Program-made: the position numbers and the translations under genes
Source: a virus
IMG/VR virus record: IMGVR_UViG_3300042884_000193
Location: 32,001-96,000 of that record
Length of the DNA: 64,000 bases
Direction: 5' to 3' (one strand)
Shown here: positions 16,272-62,929 of the stretch, one piece after another
How the letters are laid out: each line of letters opens with the position of its first letter
Position numbering within the stretch: the first letter of the stretch is position 1
Notes under the pieces: model-generated
Told to the model about the DNA's origin: nothing
Seen by the model: the letters and a program-made list of their open reading frames with translations, nothing else
Databases searched by the model: none

Positions 16272-19200
16272 TTAGTTAGTTTTCCTAGAGTTTGTCCATG
16301 CTGCTTCAAAGTAATTGTCTAGTGATTTATGATCTCTTGGTTTAGCAGTACCTCCTAATTTTTTAACAGAATTAGTTAACGTAGAAATTTCACCCTCAAG
16401 GTTATATAAGTTAAGTAACTCATCTGGTGTAAGATTTTCAAAACCTCTTCCAACAAGACTGGCAAATTCTTTTCGTGCAGCATCTAATCTTTTAGTAGCT
16501 TCAGCTCCTGTTAATTGTACAGCTGGTTTAGAAACTGCAGAATTTGATCTATACAGTGGGTGTTTTTCAGGTATGCGATCAAATGCATTAAAATGTTCTC
16601 TTAGTTTTTCAATAACCAGATCTGGATTTTGATATGATATTCCTTGTGCGGGTTTTGAAACATCATAAATATCTACAACATTTTTTGTATCATTGTATCT
16701 AAAGTTACCTCTAAGATTATCAACATCTAAGAAAAACCCCCTAGACATTAAATCTCGTGCATCTGCTTCTAATTTATTTAGGACTTCTTCTTTTGTGAGG
16801 TTTTGGAATTTTCCGGTTCTATTTAAATTTGGCATTATTTCAATAAGACCGCTGCCATCTTTATGTGCTCTTTTAACAACAGCTATATTATCACCTATAA
16901 CACCTTCAAAAGATTTTAGTAAATCGTCAACGTTATCTGTTTTAAATGTCTGACCTACTTTGATAACATGACCTGGATCATCAGCTAATTCAAAAACCAT
17001 ACCTTCAGCACCATTACCAAGACTTCTACCTAAAGGAGAGTTAGGTTGTATATTTTGTTCTTCTAACAAAGTTCTAAACTCTTTTGCTTGGTCTCTGCCT
17101 ATTCCCCAGGCATCAGAAAAATTGCTACGTGTATCAAAAGGACTACCTTTAATTTTAGCTCTTCCTATATCAGTTAAATCCTCAGCTAATTTATATTGCG
17201 CACTCCATCTATTATTATAGGCTTTCCAATAATCAGCAAATTGAGCAAGATCTATATCATCTGCTTTTCCACCAGTAAGAGTTACAAAGTTTTCAAGCAT
17301 TTTAGCTTCTGCATCAGCCTTTACTTTACCTATTAAAGGATCCCAATTTAATTTAGATGCATCTTTTATTTCTCTATACCCCATTAAAAAATTAGGTTTC
17401 GCTTTATAAGCAGTGTAATTTCTTTCAGAGTCTGCTAGGAATGCTTCTTTTCCTTTTCCTACTATTTTACTTTCTGCATTTGCAATATCAAATGCTAAAG
17501 GATTATATTTATAAATATTACTTACAAAATTATTTGTTGCATTCATTGCAGGTTTTGCAAGCTCATATCCTGCTTTTAATACAGGAGCTGCAAAAGGTGC
17601 TATTTCTAAAGCAGTTATTAAATTTTCAGCAAAAGCATTTGCATAATCAAGGGGATTACCCGTATCATTAGCATGTCGCCAAGGTTCGAGAGCTTGACCG
17701 CTTTGTATAGTTTTTAAACCATGTACTCCAAATCCGTAAGTTAAAGCATTACCTGCATTAAGCCAAGGAACAGCTTTTGGAGCTGCATTTAGAAGTTGTC
17801 TTCCACCAGCTACTGTAGCTTGAACAAGTGGTGATGATGCCGCTGCACCATATACCAATTCTCCAAGTCCTGCTAAGCCTGCTTCTCCAAGAGCAACAGG
17901 AGCCATTAATAAACTTTCAAAAATAGGAACACTTGGTAAACCTGCTGGATCATTAATAGGGGCACGTCTGAAGTTTTTTATATCTTTTTTTCTCTGTTCT
18001 TCTTCTACCTTTTCTTTATCAAACCTGCTTCTTCCTTCTTGTAGATCTATAATAGAAGCAAGTTCAGGGCTAATCTTTTTTTCTTCTATCTTCTCATACT
18101 CCGGTATTTGATCTGCAGGAATACCTTTAGCAATTCTTTGTTGACGAATTACATCAGGTACTCTAGCATAACCTTTCCTACCCCAATTAGATGCTTCATA
18201 TTCTTTTACTGAATTCCACCCCATAGCTTGAGCTCGCCTATTAAGTTCCATATTTTCAGCAACAGATTTACTAGAATCATAGCTAAAATCAAAGTCACCA
18301 CCTTCTTCTGCTTTAGGTAGCTCACCTCCTTCCTTTAGAGGTTTTATAATAAGATTGTTAAGACCATTTTCCTTACTGCTACCAATAACTTTAAAACCTT
18401 TAGGTATATTACCCATTATTTCTTTTTCTGAAATTGCACCACTATTAAGCCCTGTTTTAGGATTCCAGATAAAAGGTATTCTTTTATCACTATACGGCAT
18501 TCCGGCAAAGTTACTTCCTAAACCTTTGGTATATCTACTAGGGACAACAAGTCTTGTATTTCCAAAAGCGCTTAGGTCACCTGCTCCTGGAGTACCCACA
18601 CTCCAAGTTCTAATAGTTTTTTCGGTAGGAGTATTAAATACATCTCCTGCTTTTAGTCCTTCAAGTAATTTATTTTCTGCTGATCCACGTTCATAATAAC
18701 CAAGAATTCTAGAAATAGGGTAATCAGCTTTACTAAAATCAGTAGCGCCGGATCTTGTAAAGTCTTCCATTTGTGCCCATTCTTCAGGAGTTAATTTCAT
18801 ACCCTTACCAAATTTATCTAATAATCCAGCTTGAGCATCAGTATAAGTCTTTGGTATATAGCCTGAAGATTTAATTGGAAAATTAGGTCTTTCAACTTTC
18901 CATGCTGGAAAACCAAAATCTGTTAAACGAGAATTTCCTGTAGCAACTTTGTTATAAACTTTTCCTGCACTTTTAACTAAGGGTCCTGCAGTCATTCTTG
19001 CAGAGTTTATGGCCATTCCCAAAGGTTTTACGATAGGGGCCGCCTCCAGTGCCTCCGAGGCCATATTAATTAAACCTTCTTTAGTTGTCCATGACTCAGG
19101 TTGAAGTGCAGCATTAGACAATCTATAAGCAGCATTTGCATAAAAAAAAGGATTAGCATATTGAGTTACATCTGAAAAGGCATCTCCATCTTCCCTATAC

Positions 19201-30244: not shown

Positions 30245-32542
30245 TTATCCTCCGCATAATAAGCATGGCAAAACACCATCTTCTAAAACTATACTTGTAA
30301 TATTTGCTGAGGTCATAGTATATGTTTGAAAAGTAGGATCGGAACCAGCAACTATTGTAAATCCAATTGCCCATAAACAATTACCATTATAATTAAATAC
30401 GTATGCAGAAAAAGGATCCAGGCTATCTAAAATATTATAATCAAGTACCAGATTAAATTGAGGACAAAGATTAGCACCTCCGCTAGGGGCACTCCCATCA
30501 AGACACTGTGTGCAACCAAAAGTACCTGGATCAACTCCATACGCTCCTACTGTAAATGTATAAGTTATAGGTGGAGGTGGTGGTATAAAAGGATTACCTG
30601 AAGGTTCTGGACAAATAACTGGAACAACAGGTGTTGTTATTATACAGGCTGTAGGATCATTGATAACAGCTAAGTCTGATAAATTCTTTTTAATCCATAA
30701 TCTTTCTAGGTTAATACCATCGCATTGATTACTTATACCATACTTTAACTCTTTAAACAGTCTGTAGTAACCATCTGCAAATCTTATGTTAGCCGTTATA
30801 TCACACTGACTCTGCTGGATCTGATAAAACTTTCTATCAGGCTTAGGAATAACTCTTGTATACTTTATAGGAGCTGGATCTGGTGCTGGAAGACAGCACT
30901 CACAGTCTTTAAATATTTGAAGAACTCCTTCCTCATCTACGTATATAGTAAGATTACTAATTGCTTGATCATCAAAAGGAATTTCTGCTACTTTCCAACA
31001 ACTTCTTGGATCTGTATCTTGTGTTATTTTAACAACCTGCTCAAGTTCTGCAGGTTCTGCAAACTGAGAATTATAAGTATAAAGAATATCTAAAGGATCT
31101 AAACAATTAGTCAACTCATAAACAGGAGGTGGGCCAGGTAATTGACTTGCACAATCTGGACAAGTTCCAAAATTATTTAGTATTGTTATTGCTTGAGGTG
31201 AATCACCTGATTGTTCTACTACTAACCAACAAGTATTCGGATAACCTGCAATATAAAGAACTTGGCCTACGTATCCTGATATACCTGGTGTTAAAGCTAC
31301 CGTTGTGTATTGTGTTTGCTCTAGTGCTATACAGTCCCTTATAGCATAAATAGTCGGAGGTGGATCACATGCTGCGCAGTTTGCAACCGAGATAATATTA
31401 GAATATACCACATGTATTGTATTACTACAATCCTCTGATTCTGTTACATAAAAACAAGAACCATCAATATTAACAAAACCGTCAAGGTAAGATGAGAATT
31501 CAGTATTAGATGCAATTAAAATATCACCTGTTTGACCACAGGGTGTTAATACATAACAAGTTACATCAGCTACAGAACTTGTCATTGCAAGTACTGACTT
31601 CTGGTATGTGTCAGATACAGATGCCGTAAATGTAGTTAAATTAACTTGTTCTAATCTATAGATGGTTTCATCAGCGTCACTGTTAAAAAATCCAACTGGG
31701 GCACCACTTGTAGTAAATCCTTGAAAAAGGGTTGATCCTGATTTAGAGTCAATTGTTGTAGGGGGTATCATACCTACTGTATTTATCCAACTAGCACCTG
31801 CATTGTAAGAATACAATACATTACCATTACCTGCAGAAGCAATTAAAATATTATCACTTGACCAAGCTAGATTAGTATACTTAGGTGATTTGCCCATAGC
31901 AGCAACGGTTGTACCAAAGTACTGGACCATAGTAAAACCTAATCCACCATCTGTTGATCTAAATATTTTTCTTTTTGTAGTTACTATAATAGTAGATGCA
32001 TCTGCTGATAAATGCAGACTTGTTATATAGTCATTAGGAAAAGCAGAGTCTATAACATTACCGGTATATAACGGTAACCATGACACACCGCCATCAATTG
32101 TCTTATATAATTTAGATTCTTGAGATGCAATACCAACTAAATCATTTATAAAATGAATAGCAAGGCATTGAAGGCCAATTACTGCAGTAAAACTATTTAA
32201 GCGATTAAATGATACACCACCATCTGTAGATTTTGCTACACCGCCCATACCCGCTGTATAGATGATACTATTATTATTGGTATAACTTATTCGATAAATA
32301 GTTGGTGTATATGCGCTCCAGTTACCTGTACAAGTTACAAGAGTAGTACCACTATCAACTGACCTAGACAGATAGCCTAATCCTCCTAATATAATTTCAT
32401 TAGGATTAGTGGGATCAGCTTTTACATCATAGAATGCAGGTGAACCACTAATAGATTTATCGGTCCATATGCTTGTAGCATGATCATAGACTTTTAGTTT
32501 TCCCTCATCACCACAATAATATGTTTTACCTATAATGGGCAT
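30245..32542 (-). CDS. BNR/Asp-box beta-propeller protein with Cys-rich repeats (765 aa)
   Basis: Asp-box repeats SVDSGTTL, STDGGVSF, TIDGGVSW, STDGGLGF, SYNAGASW, then repeats ending CxxC. Confidence 0.75.
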   Translation of the reverse strand: MPIIGKTYYCGDEGKLKVYDHATSIWTDKSISGSPAFYDVKADPTNPNEIILGGLGYLSRSVDSGTTLVTCTGNWSAYTPTIYRISYTNNNSIIYTAGMGGVAKSTDGGVSFNRLNSFTAVIGLQCLAIHFINDLVGIASQESKLYKTIDGGVSWLPLYTGNVIDSAFPNDYITSLHLSADASTIIVTTKRKIFRSTDGGLGFTMVQYFGTTVAAMGKSPKYTNLAWSSDNILIASAGNGNVLYSYNAGASWINTVGMIPPTTIDSKSGSTLFQGFTTSGAPVGFFNSDADETIYRLEQVNLTTFTASVSDTYQKSVLAMTSSVADVTCYVLTPCGQTGDILIASNTEFSSYLDGFVNIDGSCFYVTESEDCSNTIHVVYSNIISVANCAACDPPPTIYAIRDCIALEQTQYTTVALTPGISGYVGQVLYIAGYPNTCWLVVEQSGDSPQAITILNNFGTCPDCASQLPGPPPVYELTNCLDPLDILYTYNSQFAEPAELEQVVKITQDTDPRSCWKVAEIPFDDQAISNLTIYVDEEGVLQIFKDCECCLPAPDPAPIKYTRVIPKPDRKFYQIQQSQCDITANIRFADGYYRLFKELKYGISNQCDGINLERLWIKKNLSDLAVINDPTACIITTPVVPVICPEPSGNPFIPPPPPITYTFTVGAYGVDPGTFGCTQCLDGSAPSGGANLCPQFNLVLDYNILDSLDPFSAYVFNYNGNCLWAIGFTIVAGSDPTFQTYTMTSANITSIVLEDGVLPCLLCGG

Positions 32543-56165: not shown

Positions 56166-57164
56166 ATGAAGCTAACCGCTACTGGTAAACTCGCTAAAGA
56201 GTATCTAAAGAAGTATCCTAAACTTCCAATCCAAACACTTGCTAAACTTATGCTTGCTGAAAATGAGCTACACTTTAATAGTATAGATCATGCACGCTCA
56301 CTACTTAAAGCACATGCTGGACTAGGAGGTAAACTTACCAGAAAGACTGTAGACCCTGAGTTACAAAGACCCATAACATATAACTATGCACCCTTTAATG
56401 ATATACCAAAGTCATATAAGTCTGGACCTAATGACTTTATACTACCAGATGATGCCAATCATATTCTTGTTCTTTCTGATATACACTTCCCTTATCATGA
56501 TGAAGAAGCTCTTGGTAGTGCTATTCAATATGGAATTGCTCAAGAAGTTAATACAATTCTCCTTAACGGTGATGTTTTAGATTTCTACCAGCTGTCACGG
56601 TTTGACAAGGACCCTTCTAAACCTAAGATGCAAGTAGAACTTGAACAAGGTAGATGGTTTATGAAAGCATTACGTACAGCATTCCCTAAAGCTAGAATTT
56701 ATTACAAGATTGGTAACCACGAGGAGAGACTTGAGAAGTGGCTAAGGATTAAAGCACCTGAATGGATTGGTATGGATGAGTTTGAGTTGAAGATGCTCCT
56801 AAGATTTGGAGAGAATCAAATTCAACTTATAGAGTCTACATCTACCATCAAGGCAGGTAACTTAAATATCATTCACGGTCATGAATATCTAGGTGGTGGT
56901 ACAGTGAACCCTGCAAGAAACTTATATCTTAAAGCAAAGGCTAGTACTATCTGCGGTCACTTTCATAGAAAATCAGAATTTATAACAAGAGACATTAACA
57001 ACAATATCCAAGGAGCTTGGAGTACTGGTTGCTTATGTGAGTTATATCCTGAGTACATGAAAGGTCATTCCGATTGGGTACATGGATTTGCAGTAGTTAA
57101 AATAGAAAAGGATGGTACCTTTTCAGTAGATAACAAGATGATCATTGATGGGGTAGTATCATAA
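56166..57164 (+). CDS. Calcineurin-like metallophosphoesterase (332 aa)
   Basis: SDIH, NGDVLD, GNHE, HGH and GHFH motifs. Confidence 0.9.
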   Translation: MKLTATGKLAKEYLKKYPKLPIQTLAKLMLAENELHFNSIDHARSLLKAHAGLGGKLTRKTVDPELQRPITYNYAPFNDIPKSYKSGPNDFILPDDANHILVLSDIHFPYHDEEALGSAIQYGIAQEVNTILLNGDVLDFYQLSRFDKDPSKPKMQVELEQGRWFMKALRTAFPKARIYYKIGNHEERLEKWLRIKAPEWIGMDEFELKMLLRFGENQIQLIESTSTIKAGNLNIIHGHEYLGGGTVNPARNLYLKAKASTICGHFHRKSEFITRDINNNIQGAWSTGCLCELYPEYMKGHSDWVHGFAVVKIEKDGTFSVDNKMIIDGVVS

Positions 57165-60450: not shown

Positions 60451-60969
60451 ATGCTAAAAGCACAATTTATCGGTGCATCTAAGACTGGGTCTTGGAAGTA
60501 CCGCGTTATCGGCACGACAGCCGAAGTTACAGCCTTTAAGGTATGGAACACTACACAGGTTAACAACAAAACCGGTGAACTGATTAAGCGCACTGCGCAG
60601 AATCATGATGTCTTATTTGTATCAATGTACAACAGAGATGAGCAGGGTAATGTAACAGGGACTGTTGTTCCTTACCCATCAGGTACTGTTATACATAGAC
60701 CATTAGTTGCGGGTGACCGTATTGGCGAAATGATCTATGAGTTTGAGCCTGATGCAAAAACAGCGTCCATTATTAATATGGCACAGGCTGTTGGTACAGA
60801 GATTACTACTATGATGCACAACATTGGGGCATTCAATGGAGTAAGCAATACTCAGGCGACTGTGGTTTCTGCAAATCCTGTGGCTGCAACACCTGCCATT
60901 AACTTCAATGCAGTACCATTATTGGAGGCTGAGGCAGATGGAGAAGAAGAAGAGGAAGATGAAGCATAA
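60451..60969 (+). CDS. Early-type protein with acidic tail (172 aa)
   Basis: Ends EAEADGEEEEEDEA; A-rich leader. Confidence 0.8.
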   Translation: MLKAQFIGASKTGSWKYRVIGTTAEVTAFKVWNTTQVNNKTGELIKRTAQNHDVLFVSMYNRDEQGNVTGTVVPYPSGTVIHRPLVAGDRIGEMIYEFEPDAKTASIINMAQAVGTEITTMMHNIGAFNGVSNTQATVVSANPVAATPAINFNAVPLLEAEADGEEEEEDEA

Positions 60970-61116
60970 TCTTGATGTAAATCATTAAGAAACGGTAGTT
61001 AAGTGGTTGGGTATCAGCGAGTTACAGTGACTTGTTGACACCCACCACTGACTACCTATCTTTATGCTAATTGCCTCAAAATCAATAACAATAGCCGTAA
61101 CATATGGCTAAATGAT

Positions 61117-61284
61117 ATGATTAAGACTTTCAACTTCATTGGTAAGTTATACTCTCATATAGTTACTATGTACTATAAGCTTAAAGAGAGATACTCTTAT
61201 GTTAGATTCATAGTAGTTAGACTCCGTGGTGGAGTTTGCTTTGGTTACTTCTCTGTTAGTAATGATATAGAGAATGCCTTATGA
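61117..61284 (+). CDS. Hypothetical protein (55 aa, not in ORF track)
   Basis: MIKTFNFIGKLYSH...DIENAL; ATGA overlap with the next ORF. Confidence 0.5.
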   Translation: MIKTFNFIGKLYSHIVTMYYKLKERYSYVRFIVVRLRGGVCFGYFSVSNDIENAL

Positions 61285-61475
61285 ATCACCTATTGCTTTA
61301 TTTCTATCTTATGACCGGGATGGTTACTAAGAACGAGGACGGATTGTATGATATACATAGTCCCAATGCTGTTGTAATAGAATCGGCCTGTGAAGGTGAG
61401 GTTTTATTATGGATAGAGACCGGTGAGTTTGCATATGATGATAATCTATGTAGAGCCGGTGAGTTAAATGATTAA
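61281..61475 (+). CDS. Hypothetical protein (64 aa)
   Basis: ORF track; coupled to the upstream ORF. Confidence 0.6.
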   Translation: MNHLLLYFYLMTGMVTKNEDGLYDIHSPNAVVIESACEGEVLLWIETGEFAYDDNLCRAGELND

Positions 61476-61631
61476 ATACTATATGCCATGTTAGATAGAT
61501 TAATTTACTAAATCGCAGTTTCCGTAGTCACCAATTTCTTTGAATAATGTTTAGGGTGATAAATACGACAGAGAAAGAACATTACATACAGCTGATGAAG
61601 TAGGCTGTTTTATTACTTAATACCTTTAAGC

Positions 61632-61922
61632 ATGACACAGATATTAGTTCCCGATAATGTCAACCCATATGATAAGAAAGAACTAATGTCCTTTATAGAG
61701 TCATTAGGCTTAAGTCTTATGGAAGACTATGAGGAAGTATTCCAATATCTTGATCCATTTACCCAAGGTAGATGGATTGATATGGGAATGAAAGTATTTT
61801 TAACTGTGAATACTTATAGACGACATCCAGGTAAAAGATTTGTAGTAGGCTATAATGTAGACTATGTAAGATCTGATAAGCCTGTTAAGTCTTATGTAGT
61901 TCACGAGTATAAAATGATTTAG
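61632..61922 (+). CDS. Hypothetical protein (96 aa)
   Basis: ORF track. Confidence 0.65.
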   Translation: MTQILVPDNVNPYDKKELMSFIESLGLSLMEDYEEVFQYLDPFTQGRWIDMGMKVFLTVNTYRRHPGKRFVVGYNVDYVRSDKPVKSYVVHEYKMI

Positions 61923-62164
61923 TGAGCCGGTGCAGTATAGGTGAAAGTTGAATAAGACCTACTCTGTAAACAAAACCTCAACCCGGGTACACGATGTAAG
62001 GGTCAACTATGCAGGTCTGTAAATTCACAGTTCAGACAACCTGCGAGATAACAGAAACTGTAACAGATTATGAGAGCCGTGACTACCATATAAAAGTAGT
62101 CAGTCCACGATGGCAAGGTATGCAAGGGTTAACACTTACTATGATAGGCTTCATAATTCTGATT

Positions 62165-62317
62165 TGTATTAATGCATCATAACTTACTTCACAAGGGTAA
62201 GCAGTTATAGTATATGCCGAGTTAGATAGATTTGATAATCTATACTATACGTAGGGTCTCTTCAGACTTGGAGTAACGTCCAGCAGGTAATACTATAACT
62301 GAATGCAGAGTGGTACA
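62165..62317 (+). ncRNA. Twister ribozyme (type P1) with extended P5
   Basis: P1 TGTAT/GTACA; UAA; P2 TGCA/TGCA; P4 CTTAC/GTAAG with loop TTCACAAGG; P5 CAGTTATAGTAT/ATACTATAACTG; conserved GA; pseudoknots CAC/GTG and TC/GG. Confidence 0.75.
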
Positions 62318-62369
62318 CACCAAGGTTAAACTTCTACCTTAAAAGAAGTAACATAAAACAAATAGTAAT

Positions 62370-62681
62370 ATGGCAGACGAGAGCATATTCGCTAAACCAT
62401 TACCAGTATACTGGACTATGGCAAACAAACAGAGTATTAAGGTAGATGATATGGGCAATGGCCATGTCAGGAATGCTTTTAAAGTACTCATTGTTCAGCA
62501 TAACAAGTTAAAGCGTGAGTATAATACGCTTGTTGATATGTACGATGACTTGATGAAGCAATCAGGAACTGTTGTCAAGTCCTATAAAGAGGTTACTCTT
62601 AATGGTGATATGGCACAAGAGTTTAATGATAAGCAAGAAGAACAAGCCAATGACCCTGAAGGTGATGGCTGTCCATTTTAA
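62370..62681 (+). CDS. Hypothetical protein (103 aa)
   Basis: WTMANKQSIKVDDMGNGHVRNA motif; A-rich leader. Confidence 0.75.
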   Translation: MADESIFAKPLPVYWTMANKQSIKVDDMGNGHVRNAFKVLIVQHNKLKREYNTLVDMYDDLMKQSGTVVKSYKEVTLNGDMAQEFNDKQEEQANDPEGDGCPF

Positions 62682-62737
62682 TGTGTGAAGGATAGACATA
62701 AGGTTTTTATAAGTTCCTTATTGTCGCTGTGTGGAAA

Positions 62738-62775
62738 ACCTGCGGGTGTTGGGCTATGCCCGCAGGTACTTTTTT
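62738..62775 (+). terminator. Intrinsic terminator
   Basis: ACCTGCGGGTGT-loop-ATGCCCGCAGGT, then ACTTTTTT. Confidence 0.85.
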
Positions 62776-62806
62776 GTAAATAAGTTAAATCAATTAATAC
62801 ACGACT

Positions 62807-62929
62807 ATGAAAGCTAGAATTAAAGATGTTATTGTATGGGCTATTGTCATATTAGGCAATGCTGCGATTTGGTATCTGTGGTATCATTTGGGTTATATGG
62901 TAGGAAATTTAAACACGGGGTGTTTATGA
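62807..62929 (+). CDS. Small single-pass membrane protein (40 aa, not in ORF track)
   Basis: MKARIKDVIVWAIVILGNAAIWYLWYHLGYMVGNLNTGCL; ATGA overlap. Confidence 0.6.
   Translation: MKARIKDVIVWAIVILGNAAIWYLWYHLGYMVGNLNTGCL

Follow-up and report, generated by a model that had tools for sequence, protein, structure and literature searches.

The window analysed here is a 64,000-nucleotide stretch of viral DNA (positions 32,001 to 96,000 of the IMG/VR virus record IMGVR_UViG_3300042884_000193), and it contains a 153-base element, at 62165-62317 on the plus strand, that has the layout of a twister self-cleaving ribozyme. All coordinates are positions in the window unless a locus is named. The virion genes, among them portal, large terminase and major head protein, form a block on the minus strand. 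The terminase shares ~25% identity with its counterparts in crAss-like phages that infect Bacteroides, Flavobacterium and Cellulophaga. Near 56166, a plus-strand block of small open reading frames (ORFs) without known family begins, which we provisionally call early because of this crAss-like kinship. The element is intergenic among the small genes of this crAss-like lake phage. It is followed by an ORF of 103 amino acids on the same strand (62370-62681), whose ATG stands 52 nt after the last base of the element. We consider it probable, with good confidence, that the element is an intact representative of a large twister variant, confined to phages and missing from the catalogue, and that it probably cuts its transcript between U62170 and A62171, ahead of the 103-amino-acid gene. 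Its architecture is that of type P1, with stem P3 absent and with an obligatory stem P5 that has a largely conserved base and a freely variable tip.

From 5' to 3', the element starts with UGUAU (62165-62169), the first strand of stem P1, which pairs with GUACA (62313-62317) in five pairs, including U62169.G62313. The 5' strand of loop L1, UAA (62170-62172), contains the predicted scissile bond U62170/A62171 and corresponds to columns 11-13 of the family alignment described below. It is followed by the 5' strand of P2, UGCA (62173-62176), which pairs with UGCA at 62304-62307. The next base, U62177, could form either a fifth P2 pair with A62303 or a pair of the T2 pseudoknot with G62196. L2 and the junction J2-4 (62178-62182) are made up of C62178, the candidate T2 partner of G62195, and AUAA. 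Stem P4 (CUUAC/GUAAG, 62183-62187 and 62197-62201) forms a hairpin spanning 62183-62201 and closes the 9-nt loop L4, UUCACAAGG (62188-62196). Relative to the usual twister L4 of 8 nt, this loop carries one extra U at its 5' side. Within L4, CAC (62190-62192) is complementary to GUG (62310-62312) and provides one side of pseudoknot T1, while GG (62195-62196) is the candidate L4 side of T2, with U62177-C62178 as its candidate partners. P5 consists of 12 perfect pairs (62202-62213 and 62290-62301) and encloses 76 nt (62214-62289), in which a bulged A is followed by a 4-bp extension of the stem (62215-62218/62286-62289) and by three hairpins. The junction J5-2 (A62302) and then A62303 lead into the P2 3' strand (together 62302-62307). 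The 3' strand of L1 (62308-62312), which comprises G62308, A62309 and the T1 bases GUG, connects P2 to the closing strand of P1.

Every proposed pair and coordinate was checked by script. An earlier, sequence-only reading of this DNA had proposed a twister ribozyme with a branched domain in P5, ending about 50 nt before the next gene, and its order of elements and all of its coordinates are indeed present in the sequence. The same holds for the 9-nt L4 and for a U.G pseudoknot pair, which would be U62177.G62196. The minimum-free-energy fold of 62160-62322 contains P1, P2, P4, P5, the 4-bp P5 extension and the three hairpins. At -45 kcal/mol, this fold has a z-score of -3.52, and none of 200 shuffles was as stable.

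The element has many relatives in other viral contigs. An exact 22-mer from P4/L4 retrieved 9 IMG/VR viral contigs, in which both core halves are near-identical to those of the window and the flanks and P5 interior are unrelated. With a relaxed pattern that left P2 and P4 free, we obtained 17 loci, comprising 13 full elements and 4 chance matches, and a pattern that left P4 and L4 free gave at least 120 IMG/VR matches. Tabulation of 125 matches revealed concerted changes in the L4 triplet and in the three bases that follow GA. From these relatives we built a covariance model, R1, which encodes nested stems only and excludes the window. Of the 37 unique members whose P5 interior measures at most 60 nt, 35 served as its input; L100, which has a decayed 3' half, and L102, a near-duplicate of L104, were omitted. 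R1 recovers the window element at 62160-62322 with 86.8 bits (E 3e-26) across all 120 model positions. Over the 119,556-bp genome this site is the only convincing copy, and no other match reached E <= 1. In the window, a second R1 match at 17460-17497 (-), with 13.2 bits and E 0.16, covers the outer stems only and looks like chance.

R1 was run on 100 of 130 sources first and on the remainder later, except L001 and L130. The search of the 100 sources gave 132 matches and that of 36 further sources gave 37, and nine loci with chance pattern matches only gave none. Other phages carry two to three copies, in a single orientation. Of the 132 copies, 131 fall outside any ORF of at least 50 amino acids on their own strand. 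Among 185,579 prokaryote species, each represented by one genome, the core pattern was found in six contigs, all of them from metagenome-assembled genomes (MAGs), and all six carry R1 matches. One unusual family copy, L019:7056-7309 (-), scores 27.9 bits and has an insertion of ~120 nt on the 5' side of L4, in an unusual location.

The fold is established by covariation among 119 distinct aligned copies, on which all counts of pairing and conservation below are based. Standard pairs occupy 91.6% of the cells, compared with 77.5% in shuffles, and none of 500 shuffles reached as high a value. When the 3' partners were slid by one to three columns as a control, only 22.7-50.5% of cells were paired. 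Compensatory changes on both sides occur in 29 of the 31 pairs of P1, P2, P4 and P5. All six model pairs of P1 change on both sides, as do all pairs of P2, where 98.5% of cells are paired. In P4 the corresponding values are five of five pairs and 98.6%, and in the 11 basal pairs of P5 they are ten pairs and 94.4%.

T1 was absent from the model behind the alignment and covaries as well. Its three pairs are CG 107/UA 2, CG 85/AU 22/UA 2 and CG 87/AU 22, with no one-sided change. The L4 and L1 triplets are fully complementary in 106 of the 119 rows and fall into six types, namely CCC:GGG (60 rows), CAC:GUG (22 rows, the window type), CCA:UGG (21 rows) and, in one row each, UCA:UGA, UCC:GGA and CUC:GAG. 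The remaining 13 rows are gapped or mismatched, and most of them are decayed copies. Since each main type occurs together with 3-15 different P4 sequences, the T1 changes do not go back to one inherited event.

G.U pairs are frequent in the family stems P1 and P5, and the innermost P1 pair is UG in 44 rows. Because such pairs work only in RNA of the plus strand, on which all neighbouring ORFs lie, the conserved structure is an RNA of that strand. This bears on whether the family might instead be a DNA-level element, in which the near-palindromic P5 stem serves as an inverted repeat for recombination or for the mobility of a small cassette and the RNA fold is incidental. Such an element would account for a P5 stem that is near-identical when read on either strand, for copies in unrelated flanks and for inserts that look shuffled between phages. 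However, the G.U pairs of P5 and P1 would be mismatches in the DNA of the other strand, the long-range covariation of L4 with the L1 3' strand has no DNA-level explanation, and in the window the element is always oriented like the neighbouring genes. We therefore find a DNA-level function hard to credit.

The bases around the predicted cleavage site form a conserved core. Counted at equivalent positions, U62170 is conserved in 113 of the 119 copies, A62171 in 116, A62172 in 115, G62308 in 112 and A62309 in 115. Each of the UU and AAGG positions of L4 keeps its base in 112-116 copies. In L2 and J2-4, both the equivalent of C62178 and the A that follows it are conserved in 113. The 32 of the 132 R1 matches that were found independently of the retrieval patterns have the same core where they are intact, and they add P2 covariation (UGCGU/ACGCA and UGUAC/GUACA) and the J2-4 variants CAUAA, CACAA, CAUU and CAAA.

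How does this compare with established twister ribozymes? According to two published reviews, P1, P2 and P4 are essential in this class, although P1 is described as dispensable for cutting, and P0, P3 and P5 are optional (PMC6154101, PMC5408937), with P5 present in 1% of annotated twisters (PMC6154101). The family has P1, P2 and P4 in the expected order, with L1 between P1 and P2. The scissile step of twisters is described as a less conserved U followed by a highly conserved A, adjoining P1 (PMC5408937); by sequence position, this is the U62170-A62171 step. Twister T1 comprises three pairs plus an A-A pair, and L4 holds a U-A pair (PMC5408937, PMC6154101). Here, L4 and L1 form the three pairs CAC 62190-62192/GUG 62310-62312, and the window counterparts of the other two contacts are A62193/A62309 and U62189/A62194. 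P2 of twisters has four pairs and is extended by an A-G pair toward T1 (PMC5408937). The window has UGCA/UGCA flanked by the counterparts A62172 and G62308, conserved in 115 and 112 of the 119 copies. The guanine equivalent to G62308 is conserved in twisters and is the proposed general base (PMC5408937, PMC6154101). Finally, about ten L1 and L4 nucleotides are very highly conserved in twisters (PMC5408937), and in the family every such position outside T1 is found in 112-116 copies. Taken together, stem and T1 covariation and the conserved L1/L4 core support the twister ribozyme with an extra P5 domain that the sequence-only reading had proposed, with a predicted cut at U62170/A62171.

The closest catalogued relative is type P1 (RF03160) of the twister class of Roth et al. 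2014. Both share the order P1, UAA, P2, L2, P4 with L4, P2', GA plus three T1 bases, and P1', as well as a three-pair T1, a P2 of four pairs bordered by a conserved A and G, the conserved U...A and AAG in L4, and the U-A step beside P1. In contrast to type P1, the family has no P3 and an obligatory P5, the tip of which measures 6-174 nt. Its last branch is followed by a junction of A plus R, where the Rfam consensus has gUAAA, and an extra covarying Y-R pair sits atop P2. T1 occurs in six variants, including the CAC:GUG of the window. The family also scores far below the Rfam cut-off and was found only in phage contigs and in the six MAG contigs. Type P5 twisters (RF02684) have an open P5 and a closed P1, whereas here P5 is closed and P1 is open. 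Twister-sister ribozymes (RF02681) were considered and rejected: that class is cleaved on the opposite loop strand and has no pseudoknot (PMC5408937), whereas the covarying pseudoknot is present here, and the window has no RF02681 match.

Two other small self-cleaving classes of phages are worth comparing. Pistol ribozymes (RF02679) occur in the same phage contigs and orientation as family copies and within a few hundred bases of them; L019:8330-8390 (-) and L024:3922-3985 (+) score above the Rfam cut-off, with 57.7 and 57.1 bits. The fold of Pistol is unrelated, and models for Pistol, hatchet and transfer RNA (tRNA) had no match over the genome of the window. The L019 and L024 loci also hold a freshwater-1 RNA (84.4 bits) and tRNAs, and L024:8602-8663 (+) is a further listed site. 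The Theta ribozymes of gut phages, which resemble that of hepatitis delta virus (HDV), are likewise a phage-specific subfamily of a known self-cleaving class, discovered through comparative genomics in the neighbourhood of small structured RNAs (PMC10879173). They belong to another class and are tied to tRNAs in that account, unlike the window element, whose genome has no tRNA match. In a literature search that covered few subscription journals, we found no description of a phage twister subfamily with obligatory P5. It is possible that members of this subfamily with a P5 are already listed in the supplement of Roth et al. 2014 or in the Rfam seed alignments.

Several observations weigh against the assignment to the twister class, among them those from the Rfam catalogue. 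Rfam 15 gave no family at gathering score in the whole window, and on 61900-62500 no match at E <= 10. Over the whole genome, RF03160 has a single match, which lies outside the window in locus L001 (G000:C1:23090-23122, minus strand); it has 21.7 bits and E 0.002 and consists of 33 nt spread across model positions 1-68. The short-P5 relative L006 has no twister match at E <= 10 and gave only chance-level matches to small nucleolar RNA and thermometer families. L031, the smallest relative, with a P5 loop of 6 nt, reaches 18.8 bits (E 0.11) with twister-P1, for which the cut-off is 67.2. None of 31 R1 matches in 14 loci reached the cut-offs of the twister models RF03160, RF03154 and RF02684. The sequence-only reading had offered a search with the Rfam twister-P1 model as its check, and the lack of a covariance-model hit together with a lack of self-cleavage as its refutation. 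That search was negative for the window and far below threshold for the relatives, which formally amounts to half of this refutation.

The family itself also departs from expectation in several places. P1 is paired in only 71.5% of cells. An essentially invariant G-C pair closes L4 on P4 in twisters (PMC5408937). If C62187-G62197 is mapped onto this pair, its equivalents in the family vary (CG 93, UA 10, AU 6, GC 3 and UG 3). Moreover, the conservation of the core is inflated, as the patterns that retrieved most copies already prescribe some of its bases.

We infer that the low Rfam scores reflect the layout of the model, in which the two interior branches are P3 and P4 and the junctions differ, and not a wrong fold, as the branches of the family are P4 and P5. 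The alignment of L031 is in line with this. It runs end to end (model positions 1-68), skips both interior branches as local ends and matches P1, UAA, P2, the GC slot of L2, AA, P2', GAGGG and P1'. Partial as it is, it places UAA, P2, GAGGG and P1 exactly where the sequence-only reading had placed them. Outside Rfam, a blastn search of 61600-62700 against 50,697 phage records gave no match.

The second pseudoknot, T2, is less certain than the first. T2 of twisters joins two nucleotides of L4 to a conserved GC in L2 that immediately follows P2 (PMC5408937). In the family, the L2 dinucleotide is YC (UC in the window, CC in most relatives), its partner in L4 is GG, and the two could pair in 98.2% of cells. 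However, as G62195 and G62196 are invariant, T2 lacks covariation support. In IMG/VR, where the GG form has at least 120 matches, the frame with a non-G at the second position (G62196) had none and that with a non-G at the first (G62195) had one. At 62177, a purine had no matches compared with at least 120 for a pyrimidine, which hints that T2 may form. The same base, however, shows Watson-Crick covariation with A62303 (columns 20-352; CG 82, UA 32, UG 2), and this pair would make P2 five pairs long. A changed P2 length may disturb the active site (PMC5408937). Like the missing T2 covariation and the altered dinucleotide, this counts among the points against a typical twister. With G62196 (columns 20-40), 62177 can always pair (CG 80, UG 32). 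This double constraint suggests that both contacts matter, either in a base triple or as alternative states.

Alternative states would be expected of an allosteric or switching twister. Its cleavage would depend on a ligand, a protein or the kinetics of transcription, and would be controlled either by U62177, which can pair with A62303 or G62196 but not with both at once, or by the P5 domain. The pyrimidine-only rule and the dual pairing at 62177 fit a switch. They are explained equally by a static base triple; in addition, the inserts hold no conserved aptamer-like domain, the P5 tips are hypervariable, and the window has no Rfam riboswitch match. We regard regulation of this kind as very improbable.

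The P5 insert poses a separate question. Across the family, the P5 interior measures 6-174 nt and is unrelated between most copies. Taken alone, the 76-nt insert of the window has a z-score of -0.59, and 50 of 200 shuffles fold as well. As relatives have a 6-nt loop in its place, the fold does not depend on the insert. A role of the insert in regulation or protein binding, as suggested by the sequence-only reading, is not supported, given inserts that are so variable in length, unrelated to each other and, in the window, without a thermodynamic signal. Nor is the insert a tRNA, as ARAGORN finds none in the window and RF00005 none in the genome.

Some of the insert does recur elsewhere. Over its first 44 nt, it shares 95% identity with L074:533-576, which is part of a whole P5-like hairpin (L074:521-617) that stands free between two ribozyme copies and differs from the window P5 by two compensatory pairs. 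L137 is a near-twin of L074 and has the corresponding free hairpin at L137:4028-4124; an 18-mer scan for further homologues of the insert found only these two loci. A different free P5-like hairpin, with 11 of 12 stem positions complementary, is present at L002:3729-3802, directly upstream of the L002 copy. The insert thus behaves as a movable module.

We also noted elements that share the P5 stem in L107:3511-3644, L093:11559-11614, L025:433-483 and L085:534-634. They have a P2-like stem and a short, different hairpin that replaces P4/L4. They do not have the GA-plus-T1 strand, and they reach ~20-23 bits with R1 where matched. They represent either copies that have decayed or a separate relative without catalytic function.

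Such observations raise the possibility that the twister fold no longer cuts, or does not mainly cut, and instead forms a stable scaffold that displays or protects the P5 hairpin, as a small cargo RNA or a protein site, in early transcripts, with the core kept for folding. A scaffold could explain why the sequence at the base of the P5 stem (CAGUUGUAAUA type) is kept far more constant than pairing alone would demand, why the insert and the L002 hairpin are found outside a ribozyme, and why elements with the same P5 stem occur without the L1 3' strand. On the other hand, the bases that in twisters serve catalysis only (A+1 and the G that follows P2') show the same degree of conservation as the structural bases. 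The inserts are unrelated between copies and reduced to a 6-nt loop in the extreme, that of the window is no more stable than its shuffles, and there are only ~4 free hairpins compared with ~130 embedded ones in 1 Mb. A non-cutting scaffold is accordingly improbable in our view.

A variant of this idea retains cleavage. Here, the P5 stem would be a slot for exchangeable small structured RNAs, and the twister core would both cut early transcripts and carry, present or release the cargo hairpins. The same cargo would then lie inside P5 in the window or alone between two ribozymes in L074 and L137, and the double constraint on U62177 may couple the folding of cargo and P5 to formation of the active site. 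We put this forward as a speculation that is doubtful at present, and return to the preferred reading of the element as a cleaving twister with a variable P5 tip.

For a cleaving twister, the genomic layout offers a plausible context. The neighbouring ORFs provide no gene association to lean on, as they lack informative family matches: one of ten matched PHROGs, with unknown function, and none of six matched Pfam. The 103-amino-acid ORF has neither a PHROG nor a Pfam match and, by tblastx, is not common to the other loci. Downstream of it, at 62738-62777 (+), lies a terminator-like hairpin of 12 pairs, seven of them G-C, followed by a T-run. The region 60900-62900 contains two terminator-like sites including this one, compared with a shuffle mean of 1.0, and there is none between 61238 and 62738. 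Processing of an early polycistronic RNA, as the sequence-only reading proposed, would fit this layout, with the element intergenic, on the strand of the genes, and with the first following terminator after the next ORF. A review places bacterial twisters in the vicinity of phage genes and notes a possible role in the processing of polycistronic transcripts (PMC6765202).

Transcript data from environmental samples give no usable evidence. Ten freshwater or lake metatranscriptome runs contain 6-8% of the sampled words of 61600-62700. Contigs from three runs, one each, cover 62100-62150, 62100-62139 and 62100-62173, the last of which continues with 19 unlike letters. Among the contigs of four runs examined, none covers the ribozyme or the part downstream of it, and one of these runs gave no contig. 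Because the end points differ and the sequences are contigs, these stops are uninformative on cleavage.

Further features of the surroundings were also inspected. A sigma-70-like match at 62129-62157 (+), with TTAACA, a 17-nt spacer and CATAAT, ends 8 nt before P1. We rejected it as a promoter, as there are eight such sites compared with a shuffle mean of 8.6 and the likely host group uses other promoters. The 248 nt upstream (61923-62170, plus strand), which contain no convincing ORF, were likewise rejected as a structured RNA, with a z-score of -0.04 and 94 of 200 shuffles as stable. At the other end of the window, downstream of the head genes, 3-32542 (-) contains very large ORFs of 2210 (open-ended), 1172, 1144, 791, 1418 and 1775 amino acids, a run that resembles the giant virion proteins of crAss-like phages.

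Based on these data, we propose the following model. As the plus-strand block of small genes is transcribed, the RNA would fold into P1, P2, P4 and P5. L4 would then dock on both loops, through T1 between CAC (62190-62192) and GUG (62310-62312) and through T2 between GG (62195-62196) and U62177-C62178, and thereby place the U62170-A62171 step beside G62308. As in other members of the twister class, the 2'-OH of U62170 would attack the phosphate, leaving an upstream RNA with a 2',3'-cyclic phosphate. The downstream RNA would start at A62171 with a 5'-OH and would keep the folded ribozyme as its 5' end. It would contain the 103-amino-acid ORF and end at the terminator-like hairpin 62738-62777. 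The likely effect on expression would be that stability and translation of this message are uncoupled from the upstream transcript.

If cleavage is confirmed, the family represents a large, phage-only branch of twister ribozymes that current catalogues do not detect. In that case, a recurrent signal for RNA processing is overlooked when phage genomes from lakes and other environments are annotated. The family would also provide a set of natural experiments on the twister core, in the form of six variants of T1, an altered T2, one additional base in L4 and a P5 that tolerates 6-174 nt. These could be used to find the essential contacts and to engineer ribozyme insulators or aptazymes. As for phage biology, crAss-like phages would then need no host nucleases to cut their early messages.

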